Assembly: GCA_963822965.1 (NCBI GenBank)
Contig: CAWGJT010000006.1
Span: 532,982-596,981 of the forward strand
Origin: an uncultured delta proteobacterium
Lineage (GTDB): Bacteria; Myxococcota_A; UBA9160; UBA4427
Direction: 5' to 3'
DNA length: 64,000 bases
The notes below the pieces were generated by a model. The model did no database searches. It saw only the letters and a list, made by a program, of their open reading frames with translations, and was not told the DNA's origin. How positions within the stretch are numbered: position 1 is the first letter of the stretch; the number at the start of each line of letters is the position of its first letter. Shown one piece after another: positions 863 through 22,821 of the stretch. Position numbers and translations under genes: made by a program.

Positions 863-894
863 TCCGGCGCAGACCCGACAGCGCCGCAGGGGAC

Positions 895-1626
895 TCATCC
901 CTCGGCGACGTAGCGACGCAGCCACTCGACGCAGCGACGCCACGCGTCCGCGGCGGCCTCGGGTCGGTGGCTCGGACGCGAGGCGTTGAGGAAGGCGTGA
1001 CCCGCTCCGTCGTAGCTCACGAGCTCATGGGTCACGCCGAGCCGGGTGAGCTCGGCGTCGAGCCGCGCGACGTCCTCGGGACTCGGGTTCGTGTCCTCTC
1101 GCCCGAACAGACCCAGCACGGGACAGGCGATGCGATCGCCGCGATCGAAGGGCGACTCCGCGGCTTCGCCCGCGTCCGCCCAGGCCGTCCCGATGCTGCC
1201 GCCGTAGAAGACCACGGCGGCCCGCAGGGCCGGGTCGTGGGTCGCCATCAGCCAGGCGATCCGCCCCCCCATGCAGAAGCCGATGACCCCCGTGCGTCGG
1301 GGATCCACCGCGGGTTGGCCACGCAGCCAGGCGGCGGTCGCCGCGAGGTCGCGCACGACCTCGCGATCGCGCAGCAGGGCCATCCGTTCCAGGGGACCCC
1401 GCGAAGCCGCCTCGGGACCCGACGGCTGCCGGTGGTAGAGGTCCGGCGCCACGGCCGCGAAGCCGCCGTCACCCAGACGATCCAGGATGTCGAGGATGAA
1501 GCCGTCCACGCCTGGCGCGTGCATGCACACGATGACCCCCGGCGTCGTCCCGGACGCGACGTCCGGAAGGATCACGTGCGCCGGCATCGGGGCGCCGTCC
1601 ACGGGGATCTCGACTTCGATGGCCAC
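895..1626 (-). CDS. dienelactone hydrolase family protein
   Basis: C-terminal 244 aa of track ORF 895..2430: VAIEVEIPVDGAPMPAHVILPD...GVIVCMHAPGVDGFILDILDRLGDGGFAAVAPDLYHRQ...GVIGFCMGGRIAW...DGAGHAF. Candidate GTG start at 1626 lies right after the upstream gene's TGA (1629-1631). Confidence 0.7.
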   Translation of the reverse strand: MAIEVEIPVDGAPMPAHVILPDVASGTTPGVIVCMHAPGVDGFILDILDRLGDGGFAAVAPDLYHRQPSGPEAASRGPLERMALLRDREVVRDLAATAAWLRGQPAVDPRRTGVIGFCMGGRIAWLMATHDPALRAAVVFYGGSIGTAWADAGEAAESPFDRGDRIACPVLGLFGREDTNPSPEDVARLDAELTRLGVTHELVSYDGAGHAFLNASRPSHRPEAAADAWRRCVEWLRRYVAEG

Positions 1627-1628
1627 GA

Positions 1629-2837
1629 TCAGCCCTCTTGCCCGGGCGCGCCGGTCTCCCCGGCTCGCGCTCCTGCCAGGCCCGGGCGCTCGGGTGCGAA
1701 GTGCTCCGCGCGCACGCCGGCGGCGAGGAGATCGTCGGGCAGGCGGCCGTCGCCGATCAGACCCGCTGCGGCGCGCGCAGCCCCGGACGAGGTCATGATG
1801 CCGAAGCCCCCCTGTCCCACCAGCCAGAAGAAGCCCTCTCGCTCGGCGTCCATTCCGATCACCGGCAGGCGATCGGCCACGAAGCTGCGCAGGCCCGCCC
1901 AGCGCCGGCGAATGTGCCGGAGCTCCAGGGTCGTGGCGCGCCGCACGCGCTCGGCGGCGAGGGCCACCGCGAGATCGTCGGGCTCGGCGTCGCAGGGCTC
2001 GCTGGGCGTCTCGTCGCACGGGGAGGCCAGCAGCTGGACGCCTTCGGGCTTCAGGTAGAAGTCGTCGTCCGCGTCGAGCAGGCACGGCCACCCGCGCACG
2101 TCGACCCCCTCCGGCGGGTCGAAGGTGAGGGCCGTGCGTCGCAGCGGTCGCAGCCCCACTGGACGCGCGCCCGCCAGACGACCCACCGCCTCTCCCCAGG
2201 CCCCCGCCGCGTTCACCACGACCGCCGCCGTGTGCCGCGAATCGCCGCAGCGCACCTCCCAGGCGCCGCCACGACGAGCCACGGACGTCACCTCGGCGCC
2301 GGTCCACAGCTCGCCGCCGCGGGCCCGGAAGCCGCGCAGGAAGCCGGCGAGCAGGACCGCCACGTCGATGCTGCAGGAATCGGGCTCGAGGATCGCCGCG
2401 GCCGCGTAGCCCTCGCGCAGGACCGGACACAGCCCACGGGCTTCCTCGCCGGAGAGCTCCTGCAGGCGGATGCCCGCCTGCGCGGCGAGCTTCGCGGCGT
2501 CGGCCAGGCGCTGGCGCTGGTCCGCTCTCGCCACCGTGAGGCTCGGTCGCGGCCGCAGGATCGCGACCGCCGAGAAGCCCTCGGGCGGATCGGCGAGGAA
2601 GGCTCGACTCGCGCGGGTGAGCCGCTGCACGGCGGGTCTGCCGTAGCTCTCCACCAGGAACGCCGCCGAGCGGCCGGTGGTGTGCTGCCCCGCCATCCGC
2701 TCCCGCTCGAGCAGCACGACGCTTCCCCGCGACTGCAGCTCGTAGGCCGCCGACGCGCCCGCGATGCCGGCGCCGATCACCACGAAGTCCGAGCTCGTGC
2801 TGCGACTCATTTCCCGCCGCTCATTGGAAGCGGACAC
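1629..2837 (-). CDS. FAD-dependent oxidoreductase (DAO / glycine-D-amino-acid oxidase-like)
   Basis: Track ORF; N-terminal dinucleotide-binding motif SDFVVIGAGIAGASAAYEL, length 402 aa; start may be the internal M at 2810. Confidence 0.75.
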   Translation of the reverse strand: MSASNERREMSRSTSSDFVVIGAGIAGASAAYELQSRGSVVLLERERMAGQHTTGRSAAFLVESYGRPAVQRLTRASRAFLADPPEGFSAVAILRPRPSLTVARADQRQRLADAAKLAAQAGIRLQELSGEEARGLCPVLREGYAAAAILEPDSCSIDVAVLLAGFLRGFRARGGELWTGAEVTSVARRGGAWEVRCGDSRHTAAVVVNAAGAWGEAVGRLAGARPVGLRPLRRTALTFDPPEGVDVRGWPCLLDADDDFYLKPEGVQLLASPCDETPSEPCDAEPDDLAVALAAERVRRATTLELRHIRRRWAGLRSFVADRLPVIGMDAEREGFFWLVGQGGFGIMTSSGAARAAAGLIGDGRLPDDLLAAGVRAEHFAPERPGLAGARAGETGAPGQEG

Positions 2838-3465
2838 GCAGCCCGCCCATCCCCGTGAAGCCGCCGACCTGGTCCGTCTGGTAGTTGCCGCCCTTCCGCT
2901 TCCACACGTCGGAGGCGTTGCCGATGCGCGCCTCGCCGAACGCCTGCAGCCACGGGACGAAGGGCACGGGCACCTCGACGCCCGCCAGCCCCAGCAGGGT
3001 GAGCCCCCCGCTCACGTCGCTGCGCACCTTGTCGCCCGGAATGCCGCTGGCGTGGTCGTCGTCCACGTCGTGGATCAGGAAGCCCACGCCGACGCCCACG
3101 TAGGGCGAGACGATCGCCTTCGGAAACGGGTGGTACTGGAACTGGAAGCGCAGCGCGAAGGTGTCGTAGTCGGGACGGAAGTCCTGCTTGAGGTCGGCTT
3201 CGAAGCGCCGGTACTCGAACTCTCCGCCGACCCAGAAGCGATCCGAGCCGAAGCCCCGGTGGAACATGCCGGAGACGTCGTATCCGCGGCTGCCGTCCCA
3301 GGGAAGGAAGACACCGCTGCCGACGCTCACGTGGTAGGGACGGACCGAGCCGTGGCGGGGCTTCTCGGGAGCCGCCGGCGCCCCCTCCTCGGCCGCCGCG
3401 ACCGAAAGCGCCGCGCCTTGCAGAGCCGACGTGCTCGCGACGAGAACGAGGAGCGCACGGCGCAT
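2821..3465 (-). CDS. outer membrane beta-barrel protein (OmpA-like N-domain/OmpW-like small porin class)
   Basis: Last 214 aa of track ORF 2821..4395 from ATG at 3465: MRRALLVLVASTSALQGAALSVAAA signal peptide; alternating aromatic/Gly beta-strand pattern; C-terminus GGLRVRFQ. Confidence 0.6.
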   Translation of the reverse strand: MRRALLVLVASTSALQGAALSVAAAEEGAPAAPEKPRHGSVRPYHVSVGSGVFLPWDGSRGYDVSGMFHRGFGSDRFWVGGEFEYRRFEADLKQDFRPDYDTFALRFQFQYHPFPKAIVSPYVGVGVGFLIHDVDDDHASGIPGDKVRSDVSGGLTLLGLAGVEVPVPFVPWLQAFGEARIGNASDVWKRKGGNYQTDQVGGFTGMGGLRVRFQ

Positions 3466-3641
3466 ACGCCTGGAGAATGGCCCTCGCCCGACACCGCTCC
3501 CCGAGTCGCCCTCGATCCTCGCGTCGACCATCCTGCAGCCTCCCGCGGCTCCCGGCGCGCGAACGCCCGAAGCCAATGCCGCGCCCCGTGAATGCCGCGC
3601 CATGATACGCGAGGGGTGACCCGGCCGCGCGCCGAACGCTC

Positions 3642-4586
3642 TCACGCGCGACGCACGCGAGACACCACCTGCGCCAGCAGGCCGGGATCGACGTTGCCGC
3701 CCGAGAGCACCACGCCGCAGCGGCCCCGTCCCTCGCGCAACGCCAGGGCCAGCGCGGCCGCACCCGAGGGCTCGAGCACCAGGCGCAGCTCGGAAAGCGC
3801 CCACGCCATGGCGTCCAGCATCTCCTCGTCCTCGACCAGCTCGATGCGCGAGACGTGCTTCGCGAGCACGGGCCAGGTGAGCTCCCCGGGCGTTCGAACC
3901 CGCAAGCCGTCCGCGATGGTGCGCGGCGGGGGCACGCTCACGCGTTCGCCCGCGGCGAGGCTCCGCCGCGTGTCGTCGGCGTCCACGGGCTCGACGCCGA
4001 TGATCTCGGCGTGGGGCGACAGGGCCTTCACGGCAACCGCACAGCCCGCCATCAGGCCGCCGCCGCTCACCGGCGCGTAGAAGCGATCGAGCTCGCCCGC
4101 GTCCTCGACGAGCTCGAGGCCGCAGGTCCCCTGCCCGGCCGCCACCCACGGATCGTCGAAGGGCGGCACCGCCACCAGCTCGCGCTCCCGCGCCAGCTCC
4201 CGCGCGCGCTGGGCGCGCTCGTCGCTGTCCGGTCCCACCTCGATCACCTCGGCGCCGTCGGCCAGGGCGCGCGCCCGCTTCGCCGGCGGCGCGTCGTTTG
4301 GCATCACGATGACCGCGTGCATGCCGAGCACGCGGGCCGCCCGGGCGACGGCCTGGGCGTGGTTGCCCGAGGAGTGGGCCACGACGCCGGGGCAATCGCG
4401 CGGCAGGCGCAGCATCTTGGCGAAGGCGCCCCGCAGCTTGAAGGCGCCGGTGGGCTGCAACGACTCGGGCTTGAGCAGGAGGTCGCAGCGCGGGCGCTCC
4501 ACGCGCAGCAGCGGCGTCCGCACCACGTAAGGCCGGATGCGTGCCGCCACGTCGCGGATCGTCTCCAGGGAGAGCCGGTCGATCAA
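3642..4586 (-). CDS. PLP-dependent threonine/serine dehydratase family (catabolic-type, no regulatory domain)
   Basis: SLQPTGAFKLRGA (PLP lysine), HSSGNHAQAVA, GGGGLMAG loop; about 314 aa. TTG start at 4586 overlaps the top6A stop (cTTGAtc), suggesting translational coupling. Confidence 0.7.
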   Translation of the reverse strand: MIDRLSLETIRDVAARIRPYVVRTPLLRVERPRCDLLLKPESLQPTGAFKLRGAFAKMLRLPRDCPGVVAHSSGNHAQAVARAARVLGMHAVIVMPNDAPPAKRARALADGAEVIEVGPDSDERAQRARELARERELVAVPPFDDPWVAAGQGTCGLELVEDAGELDRFYAPVSGGGLMAGCAVAVKALSPHAEIIGVEPVDADDTRRSLAAGERVSVPPPRTIADGLRVRTPGELTWPVLAKHVSRIELVEDEEMLDAMAWALSELRLVLEPSGAAALALALREGRGRCGVVLSGGNVDPGLLAQVVSRVRRA

Positions 4587-5935
4587 GGCAGGAAGGCTCC
4601 CACGTTGCGGAGCTTCGCGGGCAGGTACTCCTCGATCACGTAGTTCAGCCCCCACATCGCCAGGGACTGCTGCTCCGCGCGGACACCCATCTGCAGGAGC
4701 TGCTCGATCGCCTTCCGCCACGGCTTGCTGGCCTGGAAGAAGGGGTCGTTCTTGAGGGCGTCCCGGGCGCGCTTGACGTCGACCTCCTGGAGCGGGTGGG
4801 TCGGCAGCTGGTAGTCGATGATGTCCTGGGGTGTGACGCCGAGATAGCGCGCCTTCGGGACGCAGAAGAACTGGGAGAGATGGGCGGCGTTCCCCGAGCC
4901 CACCTTGAGGGTGCGGTAGATGTTCGAGATGCCGTAGGGATCGCAGTCCACGAAGGCATAGACCGGAATGGCGCAGTCGTCGGAGAGCTTGCGGATGAAC
5001 CGCCGGCACGCGCGCGCCGGCACGCCGGCCATGTTCACCAGGATGCAGTCGCGCGCCTGCCAGAACTTGTGGCTCTGGAGCCGCTGGAAGACGCCGCCCG
5101 TCTCGATCGCCAGGATGAACTTCGCCTTCGTCTCGAAGGAAAGGTGCTCGACGCTGGAGGGAATCGAGTACGCGCCCGACCCGAAGCGCGTGCAGTCGAT
5201 CCGCTCGATGCGTCCGCTGTCGCGGTCCGGGTCGAGCACGACCAGTCTCCCGGCGACGGCGCCGTTGTAGCCCTCGTCGGGGACGAAGCGCAGCTGCTCC
5301 CGCGAGACGCCCCGCAGCGAGAACATGGCCTCGATGTCGTCCATCACCGTGTCCGACTCGGTCTGGTCGTCGAACTTGGCTTCTTCCCAGTTCTTGCTCT
5401 GGTAGTACGCGTCCCGCTTCGTCGCGAAGTCGTTCGCCTCGACGAGATCCTTCGAGAGGCCCATCATGCGCAGGGTCTGGGCGAAGTTGCGCACCGTGTT
5501 GACGGTGAGGGTCCGCTGCTTCTTGTGCTTGCCGATCTCGAAGTACCCGCGCTTCTCCGAATACGAGACGTTCGAGAGCGATCGCACCGGGAACTCGAGG
5601 TCCGGCTTGCGTCCCTTCAGGATGTCCCGGTAGACGTCGTCCGCTCGGTCGTGGATGAGCCGAAGGGTCAGGTCGTCGGCCTTCTTCGTGGCCCGGGAGC
5701 GCTCGCCGGAGAGCCCCGTGCGGCCGCGCGCCGGCTTGCGCGCGGCCTTCTTCGCACGCGGCCCGCCGGCCGCGCCCCGCCGGACGGACTTCTTCGCCGC
5801 GCGGGAGGGCTTCTTCTTCGCGCTCGCCTGGGCCGGGCGGCGCGCCGGCTTCTTCTTCGCGCTCTTCTTGCGGGTCTTGCGGGCTGCCACGTCCTCTCCC
5901 GATCCCCGGATGTCGGACCCACGCAGGTTGTTCAC
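4583..5935 (-). CDS. top6A: DNA topoisomerase VI subunit A (Spo11/Top6A family) with about 95-aa K/R/A-rich N-terminal tail
   Basis: Track ORF (GTG start). Catalytic-tyrosine region FATKRDAYYQSKNW; Toprim E in ILAIETGGVF; DxD metal site FVDCDPYGISN. N-terminus is MNNLRGSDIRGSGEDVAARKTRKKSAKKKPARRPAQASAKKKPSRAAKKSVRRG... Confidence 0.8.
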   Translation of the reverse strand: MNNLRGSDIRGSGEDVAARKTRKKSAKKKPARRPAQASAKKKPSRAAKKSVRRGAAGGPRAKKAARKPARGRTGLSGERSRATKKADDLTLRLIHDRADDVYRDILKGRKPDLEFPVRSLSNVSYSEKRGYFEIGKHKKQRTLTVNTVRNFAQTLRMMGLSKDLVEANDFATKRDAYYQSKNWEEAKFDDQTESDTVMDDIEAMFSLRGVSREQLRFVPDEGYNGAVAGRLVVLDPDRDSGRIERIDCTRFGSGAYSIPSSVEHLSFETKAKFILAIETGGVFQRLQSHKFWQARDCILVNMAGVPARACRRFIRKLSDDCAIPVYAFVDCDPYGISNIYRTLKVGSGNAAHLSQFFCVPKARYLGVTPQDIIDYQLPTHPLQEVDVKRARDALKNDPFFQASKPWRKAIEQLLQMGVRAEQQSLAMWGLNYVIEEYLPAKLRNVGAFLP

Positions 5936-6231
5936 GCCGAAACGCGCTGAGCCCTGCCATCAGCGGGACCTTCCCGAGGGCTCGGCGAGGCCGCTGGTGA
6001 TTCTAGTGGGTGATCCCGGGTCGTAGCGAGCCGCCCCGATGTGCCGAGATTCGAGGGGCATGGCGGTAGGCCCAGCGGCGGTCGAGAGTCTTTGCCGTTG
6101 GTACGCGGCGTGTAGGGACCGGCGAAGCGCTGTCGGACGCCGTTCTCCAGCAGAGCCCCTCGACTGTGAACAACCCCATCAGGCACCACACCCAGCCCAG
6201 GAGCCACCGCGGGGTCGCCTCGGGGGTCGGC

Positions 6232-9200
6232 TCACGAGGCCGAAGCCGCGACCAGAAACAGCGGGCTGCGGCTGGACACCTGGAGCAGCACGGGCAGCAC
6301 CACGAGCACCAGCGGGAGCTGGAAGACCAGACCGGACACGATGGCGATCGCCAGCGGCTGGAGCATGGCCGAGCCCTCGCCGATGCCGAGAGCCAACGGC
6401 GCCAGGGCGAGGATGGCGGCGAAGGTGGTCATCGCGATCGGACGCATGCGATTCGCCCCGGCTCGAATGAAACGCTCCTCGGAAGCCGGTAGCTCCACGT
6501 ATTCCGAATAGTAGAAGATTGCGACTTCGGTCACGATGCCGATGATCATTGTCATGCCCATGCGAGAGGTGATGTTGAACTCGGTGCCGGTCACCCACAA
6601 GCCGAGATACACGCCCGCCACCGCGAGCAACGTCGTCACCAGCATCGCTCCGGCCACGCGGAAGGTCTCGTAGAGGAAGAGGAGCAGAAGAAAGACGAGC
6701 GCAACGGCAATGACGAGTATGATCGTCAGCCCGCGAAAGGCGATCTGCTGCTGCTCGTAGAGCCCACCCAGGGAGAAGGTGACACCATCGGGCAGCAGCC
6801 CGCGTTCGCTGAGCACCGTCTTCACCTCGGCGACGGTGGAGCCGAGGTCGCGACCGGCGATGCGGCCGGTCACGGCGACCATCCGCTTGAGGTCGTCGCG
6901 CGTGATTTCAGGCTGGCCGATGACGGGGGTGAGCGTCGCCACACGCTTGAGTGGAAAGAGGTGACCGTCCGCGGCACGCAGCAACAGGTTGCCGAGATCG
7001 GCCTCCGTCCTTCGATCCGCCTGCGGGATCCAGACGCGCACCCCGATCACCTTCGGTCCGCGCTGGATGCCCGACGTGACGGCACCGCCGAGAAAGTCGC
7101 CGACCGCCTGGGTGATCGCGTCGGGGTCCATCCCCTCGAGGCCCGCCTTGACGCGATTCACCTCGATGTTCAACGCGTCACCGGCCGGGACGATGCCGTC
7201 CTTGACCTCGATCACGCCATCGACCTTCGAGATCGCCTCGGCCACGGCGGGGCCGACCTGCTCCAGGACGGATTCTTCGTTGGAATAGAGCTTGATCTCG
7301 ATCGGCTGCGGGACGCTGGTGAGGTCGCCGATGAGATCCTCCATGAGCTGGGCGGTCTCGATTTGGAGGCCGGGCACCGTCCTCTCGACCCGGGTGCGAA
7401 CGTCTTCCATGATGGTCTCGATCGGCCGGCGGGGAAGCGGCACCAGGCGGACGAAGAAATCCCCGACGTTCGCCTCCGAGATCCCGCCCCCGAGCTGAAG
7501 CCCGGTCCGTCGCGAGTAGGTCTGAACGTCCGGAGTGGCCCGAAGGATGTCCTCGACCCGCCGAAGCAGTCGATCCGTCTCGGAGAGCGAGGTGCCGGGC
7601 GGCGAGAGGTAGTCGAGAATGAAGCCTCCCTCGTCCATCACGGGCATGAATCCGGTGGCCCCGTTGCGGAAGCCGAGCACTCCGCCGCCCACCAGCGGAA
7701 CGAGAAAGAGCAGCACGAGCCACGGGCGGGCGAAGAGCACCCGCATGAGGCGTTCGTAGAGACTCGGGACCGGGCCCGAGAAACGACCGCCTTCCTCCCG
7801 GACGTCCCGTTCGGTCAGGAGGCGCGCCGCGAGGATGGGAACGCCGACGAGCGAAAGGAAGAAGGAGATCACGAGGCTCGACGCCATCGTCAGCGAGAGC
7901 GCCTTGAAGAACGCGCCCGTCACTCCGGAAAGGAAGGCCAGCGGTGTGAAGATGATGATCGTGGCCGACGACGATCCAACCAGGGGCCGCGTGAACTCCG
8001 TCGCCGCCGCCAGCACCCGCTCGCGAATCCCCCCTTCCCCTCCCTCGCGGACGCGGCGGACGATGTGCTCGATCATGACGATGGCATCGTCGATGATGAG
8101 ACCGACCGCCGCCGCCATGCCGCCGAGCGTCATGATGTTGAAGCTCATCCCGAGCACGGAGAGCAGCAGAATGGTCGCAGCCAGCACGGCGGGCACCGTG
8201 AGGATGGCGATGAACGTCACCTTCCAGTCGCGCAGGAAGACGAGCAGCACGAGCGCGGCCAGGGCGATCCCGACGAGCACGGCGTCGCGGGTACTCGAGG
8301 CGGAAGCGATGATCAGGTCGCTCTGGTCGTACCAGTTGGCGACCCGAACGTCCGCGGGAAGCTGCTTCTCGAGCTCGGCGAGCTTCGCCTTGACGCCTTC
8401 CGCGATCTGGACGGTATTCCCTCCGGGCTGCTGGTAGACCTGGAAGAGAACGGCGTCGCGGCCGTCGGCGGTCACGCGAATCCACTGCGGCTGGGTGGAG
8501 CGCTCGACCGCCGCGACGTCGTCGAGCAGGACGACTCCGTATGGCGTCGACCGGAGGACGGTCCGGGAGATCTCCTCGAGGTTCTTGAACCGGGTATCGG
8601 AGATGACGAGGTAGAGCTTGTCGTTCTCTTCGAGCCGGCCTACCGCCGTGAGCACGTTCGAAGCGGAGAGCGCCTTGGCCACGTCGGCGAGCGTGAGGCC
8701 GAAGGATTGGAGCTTGGCCACGTCGGCCACGACGCGGAATTCCTCGACGCGGCCCCCCTGCACGCCGATGCGGGAGACGCCGGTCACGGTCGTCAGCGCC
8801 GGTCGCAGGGTGTAGAGGGCGAGATCGCGCAGCTCGGTGAGCGGTCGCGCGTTCGAGGTGAGGCTGTAGGCGATCACCGGAAACACGGTGGGATCCATGC
8901 GCTCGGCGTCGAACGAGGTGCCCGGCGGCAACGCCGGTATCACCTTGTTCACCTCCGACTCGGCCTGGAGCAGGGCGCTCGTCATGTCCTGGCCCCAGTC
9001 GAAGTTCACGGAGATCTGCGCGCTGCCCCGGCTCGTCGTGGAGCGCACGCCGCGCACGCCGGGGATGGCGCGGACGGCTTCTTCGATGGGTGTCGTCACC
9101 TCGACGACCATGCGCTCGGCCGGCCGGTCGCCGGCCTCGAGATCGATGCGGACGCGCGGGAAGCTGACCTGCGGAAAGAGGCTCACCGGGAGCTGGCAGC

Positions 9201-9285
9201 TGCTCATCGCCCCGGCCGCTGCGAGCACGGCGAAGAGGAAGAGGAGCGAGCGGGAGTGGCGGTGCGTCCAATCGGAGAAGTTCAT
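6232..9285 (-). CDS. RND efflux transporter permease (HAE1/HME, CzcA/CusA/AcrB-like), about 1017 aa
   Basis: Begins MNFSDWTHRHSRSLLFLFAVLAAAGA at ATG 9285 within track ORF 6232..12018; 12-TM RND topology with two large periplasmic loops; ends ...LFLVAASAS. Confidence 0.85.
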   Translation of the reverse strand: MNFSDWTHRHSRSLLFLFAVLAAAGAMSSCQLPVSLFPQVSFPRVRIDLEAGDRPAERMVVEVTTPIEEAVRAIPGVRGVRSTTSRGSAQISVNFDWGQDMTSALLQAESEVNKVIPALPPGTSFDAERMDPTVFPVIAYSLTSNARPLTELRDLALYTLRPALTTVTGVSRIGVQGGRVEEFRVVADVAKLQSFGLTLADVAKALSASNVLTAVGRLEENDKLYLVISDTRFKNLEEISRTVLRSTPYGVVLLDDVAAVERSTQPQWIRVTADGRDAVLFQVYQQPGGNTVQIAEGVKAKLAELEKQLPADVRVANWYDQSDLIIASASSTRDAVLVGIALAALVLLVFLRDWKVTFIAILTVPAVLAATILLLSVLGMSFNIMTLGGMAAAVGLIIDDAIVMIEHIVRRVREGGEGGIRERVLAAATEFTRPLVGSSSATIIIFTPLAFLSGVTGAFFKALSLTMASSLVISFFLSLVGVPILAARLLTERDVREEGGRFSGPVPSLYERLMRVLFARPWLVLLFLVPLVGGGVLGFRNGATGFMPVMDEGGFILDYLSPPGTSLSETDRLLRRVEDILRATPDVQTYSRRTGLQLGGGISEANVGDFFVRLVPLPRRPIETIMEDVRTRVERTVPGLQIETAQLMEDLIGDLTSVPQPIEIKLYSNEESVLEQVGPAVAEAISKVDGVIEVKDGIVPAGDALNIEVNRVKAGLEGMDPDAITQAVGDFLGGAVTSGIQRGPKVIGVRVWIPQADRRTEADLGNLLLRAADGHLFPLKRVATLTPVIGQPEITRDDLKRMVAVTGRIAGRDLGSTVAEVKTVLSERGLLPDGVTFSLGGLYEQQQIAFRGLTIILVIAVALVFLLLLFLYETFRVAGAMLVTTLLAVAGVYLGLWVTGTEFNITSRMGMTMIIGIVTEVAIFYYSEYVELPASEERFIRAGANRMRPIAMTTFAAILALAPLALGIGEGSAMLQPLAIAIVSGLVFQLPLVLVVLPVLLQVSSRSPLFLVAASAS

Positions 9286-10359
9286 CGCGAGGTGGTCCAC
9301 GGCCATGCCGTCCTCGAGCTCGGCGTTCCCCACCGTGACGACGAGATCGCCAGGCTCGAGGGCGTCGCCAAGGACCTCGGCTTCTCCGTCGGACACCACG
9401 CCGAGCCGGACCCGGTGGGCGACAGCCCGACCGTCGCGAACGGTGAACAGCTGCCACGCGTCGTCCTTCGGGAGGACGCTGGAGCGCGGAACCACGAGAG
9501 CGTCCTTCGATTCACGGGCGATGCTCGCCCGCAGGTATCCGTCGAGCATCAGGCCGCTGTCGGGCGGCAGGGACACATAGACGTCCACCAGGCGGGTCGC
9601 AGGATTGATGCGGCGAGTCACGAGGCGCACCGTTCCACCGATCTCGCGGCTGGCCGGCTGGTTGACCGGAAGCAGGGCGACGCTCTGCCCGACCGAGACC
9701 GCGACGAGATCCTCCGGCTCGACGCCGATCTTCGCTTCGATCTCGTCGGTCGCGATGATCTCGACGAGCGCGGCCCCGCCCGCGACGAGCTGGCCGTCCT
9801 GCACCGCCACGTTGGCGACGATTCCCTCGGAGGGCGCGCGGAGGAGGCCCGCCGTATCGGCGCCTTCGCGTTCCAGGCTCGCGAGCTGCAGCGCGGCCTG
9901 GGTGGCCGCCCTCTCGGCGGAGTTGAGATCCTGATTGGTGGCGAGCTTCAGGTCGAACCGCTCCTGGGTCTGCTTCAGCTCCTTCCGAGCGAGGTCCGCC
10001 GCGCTGCGCGCCTGGTTGACCTGCAGCTGCGTGGAAGGACTGGCGGCGATCGCGAGCAGGGGGTCGCCCTTCTCGACCGGCTGACCGGGAGCGACGAGGA
10101 CGTGGCTCACCCGTGCCTCGTAGGCGACCGAGGTCGTCTGGAGCTTCCCCGGTTGGGCGATGACGCTGCCGTAGGCGGTGACGGTCTCCGCGATCGTCTT
10201 GCGGCCCACCTTCACCGCCTCGACGAACGCGGTGGTCGCGTTCGATTCCGAGCCCGAGCCCGCGGGCGGCTCGGGCTCGGAGCACGCCGACCACCAGCCT
10301 ACCGCGAGGACGACGCTGGCAATCGGGACCGCGAGGACAAGGATTCGGCGCGGGCTCAT
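9286..10359 (-). CDS. efflux RND periplasmic adaptor (membrane fusion protein, HlyD/AcrA family); no in-frame stop before the RND ATG
   Basis: MSPRRILVLAVPIASVVLAVGWWSACS lipobox/signal; coiled-coil and beta-barrel MFP signature; ends ...VVTVGNAELEDGMAVDHLA and reads straight into MNFSDW. ATG at 10359 overlaps the OMF stop (ATGA). Confidence 0.7.
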
Positions 10360-11747
10360 GAGTCGTGGATCTGCGGCAGATAGCGTCCGGAGGCGATCTC
10401 CAGGGCCACCCACGCTTCGATCAGCTGCTGCTCGAGCTTGAGCAGCTCGACCTGGCGAAGGACGAGGTTGTAGCGAGTCTGGTAGTAGCTGATCACGTCC
10501 GTGTTTCCCTCGTCGAGGGCTGACTTCGCCGTCGTCACCAGTCGCTCGAGAGTCGGCACGGCTCTCGCCGCCTCGGCCACCTGGCGGTCGATCAGCCGGA
10601 TGTCGGACAGCGCAGTCGCGATGTCGGAGTGAGCTCGAAAGACGCGGTCGGCGTATTCGTCGAAGAGCTTCTGGCGCGTCGCACGCTCGCTGGCGATCGT
10701 GCCTTGATTCCGATCGAAGAGGGGGAGGTCCAGGGTGACGCCGAAACCGACGGTCTGCACGTCGGACGTGTCCCCTGCGCGGTTGAAGCCGATGGAAATC
10801 CTCGGGAACTGGGCGAGGATGGCCGCGCGCAGGTTGGCGTCCTCGCTCTCGTAGCCGGCCTTCAACGCGAGAAGATCGAGACGGTGGGTCTCCACTCCGG
10901 TCGTCAACTCGGACTCGGACGGTGGTTCGAGCCGGGTCGGCAATCGGGGGGTCTCGATGCGGGCGGGCGTATCCGAGGGGAATCCCATCGCCCGATTCAG
11001 CGCGAGACGCTCCCGCGCCAGGTCCTGCTCGAGACCCAGGGCCGTCAGCCTCGCATCCTCGCTGGTGGACTCCGCCGCCGACAGATCGAGAACCGTCTTC
11101 TCGTGCCGCTCTACCGCCTCTTGGAGCGTGGCCACGTTCTCGCGCAACGCCCGGTCGGCCTCGTCCGCGGCAGCGAGCTGCGCTTCGAGCGACGCGACCT
11201 TGTAGACGGCGGTACGGGCTGCCTGCGCGGTCAGCCACTCCACCCACGCCACGTCGAGATCCACGGAACGGACGTTGGCGCGGGCGGCTTCGCCCCTCGT
11301 CGACAGCGTGACGAGCGACGTCACGTCCCAGCTCGCCCCGAAGCCGAACGCCGTGACGGTGCCGGCCGTATTGCCCCCGACGACGTAGTCTCGACCGTAG
11401 GAGATCTGCGGGTTCGGCAGCACGCCCGCCTGGACGAGCTGCGCGGTCGCCAGTCCCCGCCGGTTGCGATCCGCCCGCAGCGTCGGATTGAGCAGTACGG
11501 CCAGCACCGCGGCCTCGTCTGGATTCACTCCGTCGCTGAGGTCGATCTCCATTGGACGGAGGATCGGATGCTCGATCTGCGAAGCGGCGACCCGCAGCAC
11601 CGCGACCTCGGGAACCCGGAGACTCTCCTCGACTGCCGCCTCGGTGAGCGGTTTCGGATGGTAGATCGAGCAACCCGAAGACACGAGGAGGCAGCTTGCG
11701 GCCAGCCGGAGCGGGAATCGTGGAATTCGAGCCATTCTCGGGACCAT
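10356..11747 (-). CDS. efflux outer membrane factor lipoprotein (TolC/NodT family)
   Basis: Track ORF 10356..11846; MVPRMARIPRFPLRLAASCLLVSSGCS lipoprotein signal; two repeated TolC-like halves; start 11747 (or 11735). Confidence 0.75.
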   Translation of the reverse strand: MVPRMARIPRFPLRLAASCLLVSSGCSIYHPKPLTEAAVEESLRVPEVAVLRVAASQIEHPILRPMEIDLSDGVNPDEAAVLAVLLNPTLRADRNRRGLATAQLVQAGVLPNPQISYGRDYVVGGNTAGTVTAFGFGASWDVTSLVTLSTRGEAARANVRSVDLDVAWVEWLTAQAARTAVYKVASLEAQLAAADEADRALRENVATLQEAVERHEKTVLDLSAAESTSEDARLTALGLEQDLARERLALNRAMGFPSDTPARIETPRLPTRLEPPSESELTTGVETHRLDLLALKAGYESEDANLRAAILAQFPRISIGFNRAGDTSDVQTVGFGVTLDLPLFDRNQGTIASERATRQKLFDEYADRVFRAHSDIATALSDIRLIDRQVAEAARAVPTLERLVTTAKSALDEGNTDVISYYQTRYNLVLRQVELLKLEQQLIEAWVALEIASGRYLPQIHDS

Positions 11748-11846
11748 GAGGTCTGCCCAGGCTATGCAACGCCTCCCGCCGCGGCAAGCAGACGACGCGG
11801 CGATCGGGAATACTCCGCTCGGCGCCCTGCGCGGTCGGCCAAACAC

Positions 11847-12032
11847 CCCAATGCCTGACGAATCGCTGCGTCTTGCTCGGTCCGTGCCGCGATCCGAGCC
11901 CGACGCCAGGACCTCGTGGGAATGAGATTGTCGCGCTCAGGCTGGTTCCGCCGTTCTCGCGCGATCCGCGAGGGCTGGCACGCTCTGCTGCACGCGGGAA
12001 GCACACGGAAGGACGCATCGGGGCTAGAGGCC
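11847..12032 (+). repeat. dispersed ~187-bp intergenic repeat, copy 1 (about 91% identical to 35706-35892)
   Basis: Direct alignment of cccaatgcctgacgaatcgctgcgtcttgctcggtccgtgccgcgatccgagcccgacgccaggacctcgtgggaatgagattgtcgcgctcaggctggttccgcc... with the second locus; about 17 mismatches and 1 indel over 187 bp. Confidence 0.8.
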
Positions 12033-12188
12033 CGGCCGGAAAGTGCGACCTGCATTCGAGCGCCCCCGCGGCGCCCTGGCTGCGTTCCGCTCCCGTCGCC
12101 GTAGCTTCGGCTACGCCTCGGTCGCGCGCCTTGCCAGGACGCCGCGGATGACGCTCTCGGTGCCGCGGTACACTTTCCGGCCGGGCCT

Positions 12189-14042
12189 CTAGAGCCTACG
12201 GCTCTTCTCGAGCACGTCGGTCAGGTTCTTCACGATACGATTCCGCTGCTTCTCGTCGAGCCCCAGGATGTGCTCGAGGCCGACGGCCACCTGCGGGATG
12301 TACTTCTCGATGTAGGCGCGCTTCTTGGCCTCGTCGGCAGCCCGGCGCCCCTTGCGGATGTGGGTGGCGACCCGCCGGCCGCATTCCTGCAGACCGAGCC
12401 GCAGCTCCTTGATGATTTCGGGATAGTGGGCGATCGCCTCCTTGCTTTCGGACGTGAACGGCACCCACACGCTCGCGATGTGCACCATCACCAGGGCCGG
12501 ACCCACGGGCAGCGCGCCCCGGGGCTGCTGGAGCTGGTAGGCGCGCCAGTCGGTCTGGACCACCGCCCGCGTGATCGCGCAGGCGCCCTGCTGGTACTGC
12601 AGGGGCACGCGGTTCGCGAAGCGGTAGAGGGTGATGGACTGCTCGGCGCCCATGTCGCCGCCGTAGGCGAGACCCACCTCGACGAGAAAGGGGTTGCCGC
12701 GATAGACGGCCGGCCGGCGGGTCACCGCAGCGTAGAAGTCCGCCTTCACCTCGGCCCGCAGGGCCCGCAGGATCAGGTCCTCGCCGATGGGCGCGATGCA
12801 GTCCGCGGGCGGGTTCATGATCTTCGTCTTCTGGATCGCCCGGTGGATGCGTTCGGCCTCGTTGCGGGTCACGTCCCGCGGCCGCCGCTTCGACGACACC
12901 TCGGCGCGCGCGCAGATCTCCTCGGCGGTGCGCGCCGAAACCCGCGCGAAGTCGCCCTGGAGACAGGTCCTCACGTTGCGGGCCTTGGTGTCGCGCAGCA
13001 TCTGCATCAGGACGCCGAGCTCCACACCGTAGGGATGGGGCTTGATCTCCGCCGTGAGGGGCGGCAGCTCCTTGGCGACGCGCGGAAACTCGATGGTGGG
13101 CTCCGAAGCGGCCGAGTCGCCGCCTCCTCCCGGCGCGGCTCCCTCCGCCGCCGGAGGCGCAACCGGCGGGACGTAGGTGATCTTCGCATGGGGGTTGGCG
13201 AGGGAGATCTGTCGAACGTAGGAGTCGACCGAGTGCTGCCCGCCGCGGTAGTTGCCTTCGAGCTCGATCTCCACCCGCGTGCCGTGGTCGACCGGCCAGG
13301 CCACGACCTTCTCGACCGACACCCGCGGCTCGTTCTTCTGGGTATCGATCACCAGCTCGAAGTGGTGGGCGTCCTTCCGCTTGCCGGTCCGGGTCAGGAT
13401 CTTGACGGGACGACCGGTCGTGATCAGCCCGTACATGCCCGCCGCGCTGATCCCGATGCCCTGCTGGCCCCGGCTCTGCCGCAGACGGTGGAACTTCGAG
13501 CCATAGAGGAGACGGCCGAAGATCTTCGGCACCTGGCCCCGCACGATGCCGGGACCGTTGTCCTCGATGGCGACGCGGAAGCGGGACTCGCCCTGCTGGG
13601 TGATCTCGACCCGGATGTCCGGCAGGATGCCCGCCTCCTCACAGGCGTCGAGGGAGTTGTCGACTCCCTCCTTGACGGTGGTGAGCAGGGCCTTCGAGGG
13701 ATTGTCGAACCCCAGCAGGTGCCGGTTCTTGGCGAAGAACTCGGAGACCGAGATGTCGCGCTGCTTGCGGCCCTGCTCGACCGCATCGGCGTGATGTACG
13801 GGCTTCGGCGCGCGACGAACCGCGGTGGCCTGGCGCGCGCCTTTTCGCTTCGCGGGCTTGCGGGTCGGCGGTCGCCTGCCGCCTGCCTGCCGCTTCGCCG
13901 GTTCCCGGGCCGGCTTCGCCTTCGCCTTCTTCTTCTTCTTCTTCTTCGACCTCTTCGGAGCTCTCGCCTTCGCGGCGGGCGCCCTGCGTTTGCGCCTCGT
14001 AGGCTCGCGCTTTTCGGGCTTTCGCGCGGAACGGGCCGCCAT
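12189..14042 (-). CDS. top6B: DNA topoisomerase VI subunit B (GHKL ATPase) with about 95-aa K/R-rich N-terminal tail
   Basis: Bergerat-fold motifs: N-box [10 protein letters not shown]1 DNGPGI, G2 GQQGIGISA; transducer domain follows. Start ATG at 14040-14042, preceded by GGGGGAGAGG RBS. Tail is [52 protein letters not shown]... Confidence 0.8.
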
Positions 14043-14299
14043 CGTCCTCTCCCCCCGAGAGCAGCCCCCGATCATGCCCGATCGATCCCGGGCGTTCCAG
14101 CGAAGATCCTCGCGATCGAGTCCCGCGAACCGCGTGGCGATCGGCGCGGGACCGCGGACGGAACCCGCCTGCGCGGCGCCACCGATCCCTTGGGGGGGCG
14201 AGCTCCGCCCCTCGCGACCCGTGCCGAAAAGGAGCATGCTCTCGGGTCCCCGCTCGGAATAGAGGATCACACGACCCGAATCGCTCGAGGAGACTCGCT

Positions 14300-16369
14300 A
14301 TGCAGAACGTCGATCGCCGGAACACCCGCAACTTTGCGTTGATCGGTCATGCGGGTGACGGCAAGACGTCTCTGGGCGAAGCGATCCTGCACGCCGCCGG
14401 GGCCACCTCCGAGCTCGGGCGCGTGGACGCCGGCACCTCCGTGCTCAACTACCTGCCCGAGGAGCGAGACGGGCACACCGCGTCGATCTCGGCCCACATC
14501 TACGCGTTCGACTGGAACGGCAATCATCTCACCCTCGTCGACACTCCCGGCGACCGGAACTTCCAGGGCGACGGGCTCGTCGCCCTCCAGGCCGTCGACG
14601 GGGCGGTGCTGACCCTCTCCGCCGTCGACGGCATGAAGGTGGGCAGCGAGAAGATGCTCTCCGCGGCCCAGGATGCCGGCGTTTCGGTGCTGGTCTTCGT
14701 GAACGGCGTGGACCGGGAGCGCGCCGACTTCGCCACCACCCTCGCGTCGCTCGGCGATCTGGGCGTGCACCCCGCGGTCGTGGCCTTTCCCATGGGCGAG
14801 CACGAGTCCCTCTCCGGCGTGATCGACGTGCTCCACATGAAGGCCGTGACGTCCGACGGCACCGGCGAGATTCCCCCGGAGTACGCGGACGAGGCGGCGA
14901 CCCGGCGGGAGCAGCTCATGGAGAGCGTCGCCGAGTGCAACGACGAGATGCTGGAGCGCTACCTCGACGAGGGAGAGCTCAGCGAGGAGGAGCTGCGCAG
15001 CGGCCTCGTGCAGGGCGCCAAGGCGGGGCAGATCCTGCCCGTGCTGTGCGGGTCCGCGACGGCCGAGGTGGGCGTCGATCTCCTCCTCCGCGACCTGCTC
15101 GAGCTGCTCCCCTCACCCGTCGAGCGCGGCGAGTGGCCGGCCACGAACCTCGCCGACGGGAGCGAGGCGGCCGTGGCTCCCGATCCCGCCGGCACCTTCT
15201 CGGCCGTCGTGATGAAGACGGTGATCGATCGCTACACCGGCACCCTCTCGGTCCTTCGCGTGGTCTCCGGCACCCTGCAGCCCGACGGCAGCGTCACCAA
15301 CGCCACCACCGGGGAGAAGCTGCGCGTCGGCAAGCTGCTGGCGCTGCAGGGCGACAAGCACGTCGAGGTGGCCGAGGCGGGACCGGGAGACATCGTGGCG
15401 GTTGCGAAGCTCAAGGACACCCACACCGGGAACGTCCTCACCGCCGAGAAGGGCGGCGTTCGCCTCGCGGAGCCGACGATTCCCCAGGGCGTCATCTCCT
15501 ACGCGATCGAGGCGGCGTCCCAGAAGGACGAGGACAAGGTGTTCCAGTCGCTGCACCGCCTGTGCGAGGAGGACCCCTCCCTGCACGTCGGTCGCGAGCC
15601 CACCACCGGGGAGTTCCTGCTCACGGGCATGGGCGAGCTCCACGTCCGCACCACGGTCAAGAAGCTCGAGCGCATGTTCGAGGTGAAGATCGAGCTGCGC
15701 ACCCCGAAGGTTCCCTACCGCGAGACGATCACGAAGCCCGTGCAGCACGTGGAGGGCAAGCTCAAGAAGCAGTCGGGCGGCGCCGGCATGTTCGGGGTCT
15801 GCTACCTGGACGTCGAGCCACTGCCGCGGTCCGCCGGCTTCGAGTTCGAGGACAAGATCGTGGGCGGCGCGATCCCGCGGAACCTCATCCCCGCCGTCGA
15901 GAAGGGCGTCGTCGAGGCACTGGCCCGCGGCCCCCTGGCCGGCTATCCGCTGGTCGACCTCCGCGTCCGCTGCGTCGACGGCAAGTACCACTCGGTCGAC
16001 TCCAACGAGATGGCCTTCAAGCTGGCGGGCTCGTTCGGGCTCAAGACCGCCGTCGAGCAGGCGAGGCCGGTGCTCCTCGAGCCCTACATGAAGGTCGAGA
16101 TCATGGTGCCGGACGACTCGGTGGGCGACATCATGGGCGACATCGCGAGCCGACGGGGCGTGGTGCAGACCACCGAGGTCCGCGGCAACACGAGCGTGGT
16201 GATCGCCAAGGTGCCCATGGCCGAGATGCTCGAATACGCCAGCACGCTCACCAGCCTCACCGGCGGCAAGGGCGAGTTCCACCTGGAGTTCTCGCACTAC
16301 GACGTGGTTCCCGCGAAGATCGCCGAGAAGCTCGTCGACGAGGCGCAGTCCGCCGGCGCCAAGGGCTAG
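14300..16369 (+). CDS. elongation factor G paralog (EF-G-like translational GTPase)
   Basis: NFALIGHAGDGKTSLGEAIL G1 motif, DTPGDRNF, EF-G domains II-V; 689 aa. Confidence 0.85.
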   Translation: MQNVDRRNTRNFALIGHAGDGKTSLGEAILHAAGATSELGRVDAGTSVLNYLPEERDGHTASISAHIYAFDWNGNHLTLVDTPGDRNFQGDGLVALQAVDGAVLTLSAVDGMKVGSEKMLSAAQDAGVSVLVFVNGVDRERADFATTLASLGDLGVHPAVVAFPMGEHESLSGVIDVLHMKAVTSDGTGEIPPEYADEAATRREQLMESVAECNDEMLERYLDEGELSEEELRSGLVQGAKAGQILPVLCGSATAEVGVDLLLRDLLELLPSPVERGEWPATNLADGSEAAVAPDPAGTFSAVVMKTVIDRYTGTLSVLRVVSGTLQPDGSVTNATTGEKLRVGKLLALQGDKHVEVAEAGPGDIVAVAKLKDTHTGNVLTAEKGGVRLAEPTIPQGVISYAIEAASQKDEDKVFQSLHRLCEEDPSLHVGREPTTGEFLLTGMGELHVRTTVKKLERMFEVKIELRTPKVPYRETITKPVQHVEGKLKKQSGGAGMFGVCYLDVEPLPRSAGFEFEDKIVGGAIPRNLIPAVEKGVVEALARGPLAGYPLVDLRVRCVDGKYHSVDSNEMAFKLAGSFGLKTAVEQARPVLLEPYMKVEIMVPDDSVGDIMGDIASRRGVVQTTEVRGNTSVVIAKVPMAEMLEYASTLTSLTGGKGEFHLEFSHYDVVPAKIAEKLVDEAQSAGAKG

Positions 16370-16393
16370 GCCGCTCCCGCCCGGACTGGATCC

Positions 16394-17173
16394 ATGCCGA
16401 CGTCCCCGCCTGCCGCCCAACGCCTCGAAGGCAAGGTCGCGCTCGTCTCGGGCGCGGCGCGGGGCATGGGGGCCGCCGAGGCCCGGCTCTTCGCGGCGCA
16501 CGGCGCCCGAGTGGTGCTGGGCGACATTCGGAAGGAGCCCGTGCAGCAGCTCGCCGACGAGCTCGCCGCCGCGGGACGCGAGGCCTTCGCCTGGCAGCTC
16601 GACGTGCGCGACGAGCGCTCGTGGCGCGCCGTCGTCGAAGCCGCCGAGCAGCGCTTCGGACGCCTGGACGTGCTCGTCAACAACGCCGGGATCGCCGATC
16701 CCGCCGGCATCGAGGACACCAGCCGGGAACGATGGGACGAGATCGTCGCCGTGAACCAGACGGGCACCTGGCTCGGCATGAAGTCCGCCGTGCCCGCGAT
16801 GCGCCGCGCGGGCGCCGGCTCGATCGTCAACGTCTCGTCCATCTACGGCATCGTGGGAAGCAGCGGCTCCGCCGCCTACCACGCCGCCAAGGGCGCCGTC
16901 CGCGTCCTCACCAAGCAGGCGGCGATCGAGTATGCGCCGGCGAAGATCCGGGTGAATTCGATCCATCCCGGATTCATCGACACGCCGATGCTCCGGGCCC
17001 CGTTCGAAGGCCGGCCGGACGAGCTCGCGGGCGCGATCGCCGCGCTCACGCCCCTGGGTCGAGTGGGCACGCCGGAGGAGATCGCGAACGCGGCGTTGTT
17101 CCTCGCTTCCGACGAATCGTCGTTCGTGACCGGCGCCGAGCTGGTCGTGGACGGCGGCTACACGGCGCGCTGA
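16394..17173 (+). CDS. SDR family oxidoreductase
   Basis: GKVALVSGAARGMG Rossmann motif, NNAG, catalytic YHAAK. Confidence 0.8.
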   Translation: MPTSPPAAQRLEGKVALVSGAARGMGAAEARLFAAHGARVVLGDIRKEPVQQLADELAAAGREAFAWQLDVRDERSWRAVVEAAEQRFGRLDVLVNNAGIADPAGIEDTSRERWDEIVAVNQTGTWLGMKSAVPAMRRAGAGSIVNVSSIYGIVGSSGSAAYHAAKGAVRVLTKQAAIEYAPAKIRVNSIHPGFIDTPMLRAPFEGRPDELAGAIAALTPLGRVGTPEEIANAALFLASDESSFVTGAELVVDGGYTAR

Positions 17174-17185
17174 TCCGTCCGCCGC

Positions 17186-19542: not shown

Positions 19543-19546
19543 CGGG

Positions 19547-19957: not shown

Positions 19958-20006
19958 GCGGGGACTCCTTGGATTCGGGTTCTCGGGGAACGGGACGCTG
20001 AATCGC

Positions 20007-20351: not shown

Positions 20352-20434
20352 CGGGCTGGATTTATTGTTTCCAACACTATCGAATCATGAAATCGATGTC
20401 GACCCCTTCCGTCCGGCGAATCCGGCGGATCCGG

Positions 20435-20440
20435 TAGAAT
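20435..20440 (+). promoter_or_regulatory. candidate sigma70-type -10 element (CGGTAGAAT) for gtrA, in AT-richer arsR/gtrA divergent intergenic region
   Basis: The same CGGTAGAAT nonamer recurs upstream of start codons at 22791-22799 and 62625-62633. Confidence 0.35.
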
Positions 20441-20482
20441 GCGCCGCAACCCCTCGGAGACAGGAACGAAATCCGGCAGCCG

Positions 20483-20929: not shown

Positions 20930-20980
20930 GCCCGCCCTCGCGGCGGCTCGCGTGATAGGCTCGTTGCCGGGAGGCCCGGC

Positions 20981-21844: not shown

Positions 21845-21848
21845 CGGA

Positions 21849-22799: not shown

Positions 22800-22821
22800 C
22801 GGGCTCACCCGGAGGAGCCGG

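Follow-up and report, generated by a model that had tools for sequence, protein, structure and literature searches.

What allows a topoisomerase of archaeal origin to serve a bacterial chromosome? The question is raised by a 64-kb stretch of DNA from an uncultured delta proteobacterium of the GTDB phylum Myxococcota_A (assembly GCA_963822965.1, contig CAWGJT010000006.1, positions 532,982 to 596,981; hereafter the window), which encodes both subunits of a topoisomerase VI (Topo VI), Top6A and Top6B, each opening with a long and strongly basic tail, the two genes being held apart by an efflux-pump cassette. We consider it probable that this locus specifies a functional Topo VI of an archaeal-derived bacterial clade, in which the tails serve as non-specific DNA anchors and the operon has been split by an insertion. 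The enzyme is a member of a bacterial clade that has already been published; its notable part is the pair of polycationic tails.

A complete topoisomerase VI of archaeal type

A reading of the window from sequence only, made before the present analysis, had proposed a complete type IIB topoisomerase, and hidden Markov model profiles, catalytic motifs and matches to solved structures all agree with it. Top6A is recovered by the Pfam models TP6A_N (PF04406; E-value 1.2e-15, 57.5 bits against a cut-off of 26), Topo_VI_alpha, an all-beta domain (PF20768; 3e-13, 49.8 bits against 23.6), and Toprim (PF21180; 5.9e-58, 196 bits against 24.1), and it is matched by Top6A of Methanocaldococcus jannaschii (1D3Y) with an E-value of 2.8e-105. 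The alignment to 1D3Y places its catalytic residues at R159, Y162-Y163, E263 and D315-x-D317 (numbering of the 435-residue protein), with Y163 corresponding to Y103 of the M. jannaschii enzyme, E263 to E197, and D315/D317 to D249/D251; the catalytic tyrosine, the Toprim glutamate and the DxD motif are invariant across 48 homologues. Top6A falls below the cut-offs of the NCBIfam equivalog models, the best being NF003337 (456.6 bits against 675) with five others likewise below. The match to NF003337 still runs over nearly the full length of the model (positions 7-370 of 370) and identifies the family, and the cut-offs of these models appear to be narrow and clade-specific. Most of them (NF003332-NF003337) bear the name "DNA topoisomerase IV subunit A", as do, misleadingly, the NCBI records of the Myxococcota Top6A homologues, a naming that may mask how frequent Topo VI is in bacteria.

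Top6B combines HATPase_c (PF02518, also PF13589; 3.7e-09) with Topo-VIb_trans (PF09239; 3.3e-59, 199.7 bits) and passes the NCBIfam equivalogs PRK04184 (675.4 bits, cut-off 274) and TIGR01052 (539 bits, cut-off 380.7). Top6B of Methanosarcina mazei (2Q2E_B) matches it with an E-value of 1.3e-152 over residues 87-607, unbroken through the H2TH region. Its ATPase boxes (N129; D161-N-G-P-G165; G192-Q-Q-G-I-G197), which align with those of M. mazei and Sulfolobus shibatae, are invariant in 49 sequences, and the lysine of S-E-S-K534, also unchanged in about 48 homologues, aligns with the switch lysine of S. shibatae. The protein collection that was searched, with sources in NCBI and ENA, contains sequences identical to both products (P0001, 435 residues; P0121, 617 residues). 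Against three relatives the ratio of non-synonymous to synonymous substitution (dN/dS) in the cores is 0.09-0.10 for Top6A and 0.13-0.18 for Top6B, which points to purifying selection. Judged by profiles, catalytic residues and solved structures the locus is a complete Topo VI (A+B), and with both subunits intact and under purifying selection, assembly into an A2B2 heterotetramer and ATP-dependent strand passage are predicted.

In its two-subunit architecture, domains and catalytic residues the window enzyme resembles the archaeal Topo VI of known structure (1D3Y; M. mazei Top6A/B, 2Q2E; S. shibatae, 2ZBK). It differs from them by its polycationic tails of 68-86 residues, which are missing in the solved chains, and by a short Pro/Ala/Gly insert near residues 292-316; moreover, its Top6B lacks the Ig-like C-terminal domain of M. 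mazei Top6B. A further difference concerns the KGRR loop, the sensor of the transported segment or of DNA crossings in M. mazei, where mutation of the loop abolishes strand passage (PMC5922973): in the window Top6B the loop reads RGGQH (residues ~266-270, positions ~13233-13247). RGGQH is found at this place in 112 of the 120 close Top6B homologues, with Acidobacteriota having KKGRR, and the basic loop is a trait of the M. mazei enzyme rather than one that defines the family.

Topo VI has been recorded in 17 bacterial families, including the Anaeromyxobacteraceae, Vulgatibacteraceae, Polyangiaceae and Pirellulaceae, three of the 17 being myxobacterial, and one of the bacterial clusters adjoins the Methanococcales (Allen & Maxwell 2024, PMC11302465). 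That the window Top6A is matched so strongly by M. jannaschii Top6A is consistent with this clustering, and the clade of the window enzyme was probably acquired from methanogen-like archaea. Two features set the window locus apart from the published bacterial Topo VI, namely the tails, unmentioned there, and the splitting of the operon by an insertion. The Topo VIII and mini-A enzymes of mobile elements (PMC4117785, PMC7671362) are also type IIB relatives found in bacteria, whereas the window locus is chromosomal and syntenic, has separate A and B subunits and encodes a Top6B that passes the Topo VI equivalogs.

Polycationic tails on both subunits

The sequence-only reading had described the tails as histone-H1-like extensions of about 90-95 residues each, a length that proved too great, since they measure about 68 residues in Top6A and about 86 in Top6B. 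The Top6A tail consists of 21% K, 19% R, 24% A and 7% P with 1% acidic residues (D+E) and has a net charge of +26; the Top6B tail consists of 22% K, 21% R, 22% A and 13% P with 5% acidic residues and has a net charge of +33, the tail charge per A2B2 heterotetramer being about +118. Across the six reading frames of the 64 kb, lysine-rich segments (at least 9 Lys in 40 residues) are confined to these two tails. The in-frame G+C content at third codon positions is 0.97 in the Top6A tail and 0.80 in that of Top6B, and AAG accounts for 31 of the 33 lysine codons. An (AAG)7 run at 13926-13946 (minus strand), encoding KKKKKKK in the Top6B tail, is likely a hotspot of in-frame length change through slippage.

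AlphaFold2 models residues 1-62 of Top6A without secondary structure and with a predicted local distance difference test score (pLDDT) under 50, a helix at 63-92 coming next, and residues 1-86 of Top6B likewise without secondary structure, at a pLDDT of about 42, ahead of a helix at 87-95 in the N-strap region; both tails are on these models likely to be disordered. The likeness to histone H1, and to the chlamydial Hc2-type proteins, holds for the composition, which is K/A/P-rich, basic and likely disordered, and does not extend to family membership: no Pfam family matches either window tail even at E<=10, and the HC2 profile reached only 27 bits, below its cut-off of 40, in the single homologue P0047. 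Homology of the tails to H1 or HC2 was accordingly ruled out in favor of mere resemblance.

To delineate the distribution of the tails we relied on searches with each subunit, which gave at least 8000 scored matches apiece and from which the best 120 homologues per subunit, 69-100% identical over the aligned part, were compared. Among those for which the source gives an organism, most come from Myxococcota metagenome-assembled genomes (MAGs), in keeping with a probable Myxococcota host for the window, and others bear the label Deltaproteobacteria, Proteobacteria or just bacterium. For both subunits nearly all the homologues possess tails of this composition, and nearly all of the Top6A proteins start with MAARKK..., which leads into a K/R/A-rich stretch. 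What is kept is the composition (~40% K+R, almost without D/E or hydrophobic residues), while the sequence and the length vary, the Top6B tail having a median length of 67 residues and a range of 0-128. A subclade of Top6B (P0151, P0164, P0174, P0176, P0217, P0222) has an N-terminal M(A/S/N)EQE(S/T/K)FAF ahead of the basic region; this motif is absent from the window Top6B and could be a short linear interaction motif.

A wider view comes from 80 loci retained from species-representative genomes, in which Topo VI is found in Myxococcota, Acidobacteriota, Planctomycetota, Eisenbacteria, Kiritimatiellia/Verrucomicrobiota, Gemmatimonadota, Nitrospira and Rokubacteria, as well as in MAGs labelled as DPANN and Methanosarcinales. 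Topo VI is thus less rare in bacteria than the earlier reading suggested, given the at least 8000 matches per subunit and the many bacterial phyla represented. Basic tails occur on both subunits in Myxococcota and Planctomycetota and on a part of the Acidobacteriota enzymes; the archaeal-labelled loci have weak ones or none. When tail basicity is scored as the best 40-residue window of net charge upstream of the core, the median for Top6B is about +9 to +10 in most bacterial groups as against +1.5 in the archaeal-labelled loci, with the window tails near the top of the range (B +21, A +18). Tail basicity on A rises with that on B (Spearman rho 0.47, p 9e-4, n 46, without phylogenetic correction), and a rough neighbor-joining tree built from the Top6A cores has strongly basic tails in each of its two deep lineages, almost solely on bacterial-labelled branches. 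The absence of the tails from archaeal enzymes was upheld for those examined, in that the solved chains begin where the tails end in the alignments to 1D3Y and 2Q2E_B. By these comparisons many bacterial Topo VI share such tails, which are not peculiar to the window locus. Term searches of PMC11302465, PMC9665070 (on evolution) and PMC13040014 (a 2026 cryo-EM study) brought up no basic or lysine-rich N-terminus of a bacterial Topo VI; in the first of these the words lysine and disordered are absent and extension is used only for a C-terminal domain of Top6B. A literature search aimed at such tails gave nothing relevant either. The tails are widespread and, in the literature searched, apparently undescribed.

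The same rough tree also showed archaeal-labelled Top6A proteins from DPANN and Methanosarcinales MAGs (loci L029, L031, L035, L040, L043, L053, L056, L060, L061, L066 and L067) nested within the large bacterial clade, with M. jannaschii outside it. This nesting could reflect inter-domain transfer, in one direction or the other, or mis-binning.

A possible role for the tails in DNA binding

Archaeal Topo VI shows an unexplained slow and distributive behavior in vitro, and for the M. mazei enzyme a "missing factor" that raises processivity has been proposed (PMC5922973), while the role of Topo VI in bacteria is an open question (PMC11302465). A functional analogy is offered by Streptomyces TopA, likewise a topoisomerase bearing an added low-complexity region rich in lysine; its lysine repeats stabilize the enzyme-DNA complex and confer processivity (PMC5714199). 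TopA differs in being a monomeric type IA enzyme with C-terminal repeats on its one polypeptide, and it is not homologous. By analogy with it, the tails of Topo VI may anchor the enzyme to DNA in a non-specific, sliding manner. That of Top6B is predicted to exit the GHKL domain beside the N-strap, at the entrance to the ATP gate, the site of entry and capture of the transported (T) DNA segment, and the Top6A tail to exit beside the transducer-docking helix, near the arms of the cleaved (G) segment. The four flexible polycations of the holoenzyme would thereby add electrostatic DNA contacts, raising affinity, salt tolerance and residence time, and these contacts would probably favor processivity or the capture of DNA crossings. 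In such a manner the tails might adapt a slow, distributive archaeal type of enzyme to the part of main decatenase of a bacterial nucleoid.

Several points weigh against this proposal. The DNA-binding role is drawn from charge, position and analogy, the Top6A model is of modest quality (mean pLDDT 58.7), and the correlation between A and B tails is uncorrected for shared ancestry. Tail length and sequence are widely variable, and since some bacterial enzymes (several Acidobacteriota, Nitrospira and Rokubacteria loci) have short tails or none, the tails cannot be essential to Topo VI in bacteria. MAG taxon labels may be in error. A consensus scan found no promoter for top6A after the split of the operon. 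The separate idea that the tails compensate for a degenerate KGRR loop was rejected because the basicity of loop and tail is not inversely related, their correlation over the 80 loci being weakly positive (rho +0.22).

A bolder version of the anchoring proposal, which we regard as tentative, is that the tails represent a recurrent adaptation after transfer from archaea to bacteria, maybe gained more than once, and constitute a built-in module for processivity and nucleoid targeting that would let Topo VI replace Topo IV. This module would be the "missing factor" of the archaeal enzyme and the counterpart of plant BIN4/RHL1, and Topo VI would be the chromosomal decatenase of Myxococcota, Planctomycetota and other phyla. 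In a survey of 17 species, Topo VI-bearing bacteria outside Pseudomonadota and Terrabacteria were without Topo IV (PMC11302465). BIN4 and RHL1 are similarly extra components of Topo VI outside Archaea that are thought to contact DNA or chromatin (PMC2647321, PMC5922973), but they are separate proteins rather than fused tails and are unrelated in sequence.

It is rather doubtful that the tails are functional in some other way, such as localization to the nucleoid or to condensates, binding of RNA, polyphosphate or an acidic partner, or autoinhibition of the ATP gate. Disordered polycationic segments are promiscuous binders, the tail of Top6B joins directly to the N-strap that controls GHKL dimerization, and the MAEQE(S/T)FAF motif of the Top6B subclade resembles a partner-binding peptide; however, no specific partner is indicated, the neighboring genes are unrelated to DNA metabolism, and the nearest experimental precedent for lysine repeats is the stabilization of DNA complexes (PMC5714199). 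Somewhat less probable still is that the tails are neutral low-complexity expansions, arising from AAG-rich slippage and tolerated as harmless N-terminal disorder. The lack of conservation in their sequence and length (20-128 residues), the (AAG)7 microsatellite within the Top6B tail and the lineages with little or no tail would all fit such an origin. Against it stand the tight retention of composition on both subunits in hundreds of homologues, the recurrence of the tails in two deep Top6A lineages and not in archaeal-labelled members, the co-variation of A and B basicity, and the lack of any such segment in the other genes of the 64 kb. Anchoring to DNA is hence the reading we prefer for the tails.

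Insertion of an efflux cassette into the top6B-top6A operon

The Topo VI and efflux genes of the locus all lie on the minus strand of the window, which has a G+C content of ~70%; the long plus-strand open reading frames (ORFs) of this region are high-GC shadow ORFs. Along the minus strand the order is top6B, a palindrome, a dispersed repeat, a gene for an outer membrane factor (OMF), a combined gene for a membrane fusion protein (MFP) and a resistance-nodulation-division (RND) transporter, a 341-nt spacer, top6A, and a PALP-type gene (Table 1). This confirmed the layout discerned by the sequence-only reading, with co-oriented topoisomerase genes separated by an OMF-MFP-RND operon of ~6 kb and a copy of a dispersed repeat. 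That reading had also considered the layout compatible with insertion into an ancestral top6B-top6A operon, and the synteny of related loci bears this out. In most related loci carrying both genes top6A lies directly downstream of top6B, and the two are adjacent also in a closed 5.8-Mb genome. The syntenic loci L081, L088 and L089 have the arrangement EF-G<- ->top6B->top6A->next gene, with gaps between B and A of 1-18 nt. L081, whose Top6B and Top6A are respectively 83% and 88% identical to those of the window, is collinear with window positions 4..24000 except that 5891-12188 has no counterpart in it, which identifies these 6.3 kb as a lineage-specific insertion at the B/A junction. The ancestral operon, as reconstructed from such comparisons, is top6B-top6A-PALP gene.

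The inserted block comprises a palindromic element resembling miniature inverted-repeat transposable elements (MITEs), the dispersed repeat and the OMF-MFP-RND cassette. The junction on the top6B side is a CTAG that holds the TAG stop codon. Located 46 nt upstream of the top6A start is the sequence CGTGAACAACCTGCGTGG, which agrees in 16 of 18 nt with the 3' end of L081 top6B at an equal offset (local-alignment p ~0.002 against shuffles) and is probably a relic of the old top6B/top6A junction. No longer relic of top6B was found at the protein level upstream of top6A, and the spacer 5891-6231 showed no similarity to any of the loci compared. A consensus scan of three intergenic regions, including 5891-6231, detected neither promoters nor terminators, a result that is uninformative at 70% GC. 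Now separated from top6B, top6A has a strong ribosome-binding site of its own, GGGAGAGGAC.

That the split uncoupled the subunits and set the system on the path of decay, with top6A silent or mis-dosed and the locus on its way to a pseudogene, is very improbable. It is true that 6.3 kb now separate the two genes, that the scan upstream of top6A yielded no promoter, and that a frameshift has fused the MFP and RND genes of the insert itself; but both topoisomerase ORFs are of full length with complete catalytic residues, dN/dS lies at 0.09-0.18, and the Shine-Dalgarno (SD) sequence of top6A is strong and shared as a 10-mer with the region upstream of top6B. Furthermore, because all the genes are co-oriented, read-through from the efflux operon into top6A is possible.

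Translation starts of the tailed subunits

The most likely start of Top6A is GTG 5890, which has the SD sequence at 5891-5900 and agrees with the 435-residue P0001. The start at 5935 of the sequence-only reading, a GTG that falls within CGTGAACAACCTGCGTGG, is on these grounds probably 15 codons too far upstream. The same 10-nt SD sequence, GGGAGAGGAC, is found upstream of the top6B ATG at 14042, which is preceded by GGGGGGAGAGGACG; no likeness between the regions upstream of top6A and top6B was found beyond it (p ~0.1). Downstream of these starts, ATG, GTG or TTG does not recur in frame before codon 117 in the A ORF and codon 243 in the B ORF, both within conserved domains, so that the tails are necessarily translated if the enzyme is made at all. 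The tails were thereby found to be genuine, in agreement with the earlier reading, and their being annotation artefacts of wrong upstream starts, as might be suspected from the long spurious upstream ORFs that high-GC genomes yield and from the Top6A start having in fact been set ~15 codons too early, is already effectively refuted by the lack of in-frame starts between 5890 and codon 117 (A) and between 14042 and codon 243 (B) and by the retention of the tails in frame in homologues from hundreds of contigs.

Features of the locus and the inserted elements

Table 1. Genes, protein segments and inserted elements of the Topo VI locus, in window coordinates
Feature	Position	Strand	Basis
PALP-type gene, syntenic with the L081 gene of the PALP family (pyridoxal-phosphate enzyme)	3642..4586	-	Synteny, collinearity
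top6A coding sequence, 435 residues: tail, N-terminal helix, winged-helix/5Y-CAP, Toprim	4583..5890	-	Pfam, 1D3Y match
Top6A polycationic tail, residues 1-68	5687..5890	-	Composition, AlphaFold2, start-codon scan
Spacer, 341 nt, RND stop to top6A start	5891..6231	-	Includes SD GGGAGAGGAC at 5891-5900
Probable relic of ancestral top6B 3' end, CGTGAACAACCTGCGTGG	5919..5936	-	16/18 nt against L081
MFP + RND (CzcA-like), one ORF of 1375 residues	6232..10359	-	ACR_tran 1.7e-208, HlyD_D23 3.4e-17
OMF gene	10356..11747	-	PF02321 OEP 4.3e-29
Dispersed repeat, ~190 nt	11847..12037	.	Second copy 35706-35896, 90% identical
Palindromic MITE-like element, 169 nt	12024..12192	.	Inverted repeats, fold energy
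top6B coding sequence, 617 residues: tail, GHKL ATPase, H2TH region, transducer	12189..14042	-	Pfam, NCBIfam, 2Q2E_B match
Top6B polycationic tail, residues 1-86	13785..14042	-	Composition, AlphaFold2, start-codon scan
EF-G-like GTPase gene, divergent, synteny anchor upstream of top6B	14300..16369	+	Pfam EF-G domains

The palindrome has perfect terminal inverted repeats of 22 bp, CTAGAGGCCCGGCCGGAAAGTG, and CTAG at both ends; one of these is the CTAG with the stop codon of top6B, which the element thus overlaps. It folds strongly (-136.6 kcal/mol, z -9.9), but solely by virtue of being a perfect inverted repeat. A copy of the same size and 87% identity is present at 115-283 of the metagenome contig L086, downstream of a luciferase-like gene, where it also overlaps the TAG stop of an unrelated gene, and this indicates that the palindrome is a mobile MITE-like element. 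It seems, from these two sites, to target CTAG, a tetranucleotide that is rare in high-GC DNA; a target-site duplication would be inseparable from its CTAG ends. A role as a hairpin at the 3' end of the mRNA is possible. A related stretch occurs also at 6398-6419 of L087.

The dispersed repeat has terminal inverted ends of ~10 bp and ends in CTAG exactly at the start of the palindrome; its second copy lies in a different gene context. The two copies fold no better than shuffles (z -0.27 and +0.55). Neither repeat nor palindrome corresponds to a known RNA, there being no Rfam match at the gathering threshold or at E<=1. The repeat was also rejected as a shared 5' leader of paralogous operons, since the orientations of the neighboring genes differ between the copies, and the ORFs flanking the second copy have no Pfam match.

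The cassette has the tripartite order OMF, MFP and RND (PF02321, HlyD_D23/HlyD_3 and ACR_tran), the same three genes following one another in L082-L085. The OMF gene has a probable start at ATG 11747 and a lipoprotein-like LVSSGC motif, and the RND homologues are named "CzcA family heavy metal efflux pump" by the Joint Genome Institute (JGI). At the DNA level the cassette is 75-76% identical to cassettes in unrelated contexts, beside two-component regulators, that of L082 being near a transposase gene; many of the RND homologues, at 71-75% identity, are from Chthoniobacterales/Verrucomicrobiota. One extra nucleotide at ~9291-9300 fuses MFP and RND into a single ORF, the RND part running from ~9285, whereas the homologous MFPs (354-358 residues) and RND proteins (~1012-1016 residues; ~997-1034 over the 119 homologues listed) are separate proteins with a GTGA overlap. 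The fusion may be a genuine mutation, whether inactivating or fusing, or else an error of assembly.

Downstream of top6A, the TTG start of the PALP-type gene overlaps the top6A stop (TTGA), and the two genes are translationally coupled, likewise in L081, L088 and L089. The L081 counterpart, of 314 residues and annotated PF00291 (PALP), similarly overlaps top6A. No functional tie of this gene to the topoisomerase is evident. The EF-G-like gene is the upstream neighbor of top6B in L081, L088 and L089 too.

Implications

The splitting of the operon is a matter of ordinary genome evolution, and in the window it offers a clean and datable case, with an insertion at a stop-codon CTAG, a possible relic of the junction and a new ribosome-binding site for top6A. 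The wider significance lies with the tails. Topo VI serves as the model of both Spo11 and the type IIB mechanism, and the presence in a large bacterial clade of about 118 extra positive charges on the tails of each holoenzyme provides a testable handle on how the affinity and processivity of a type IIB enzyme may be tuned. The tails thereby bear on what a topoisomerase may require in order to function after it has crossed from one domain of life to another.

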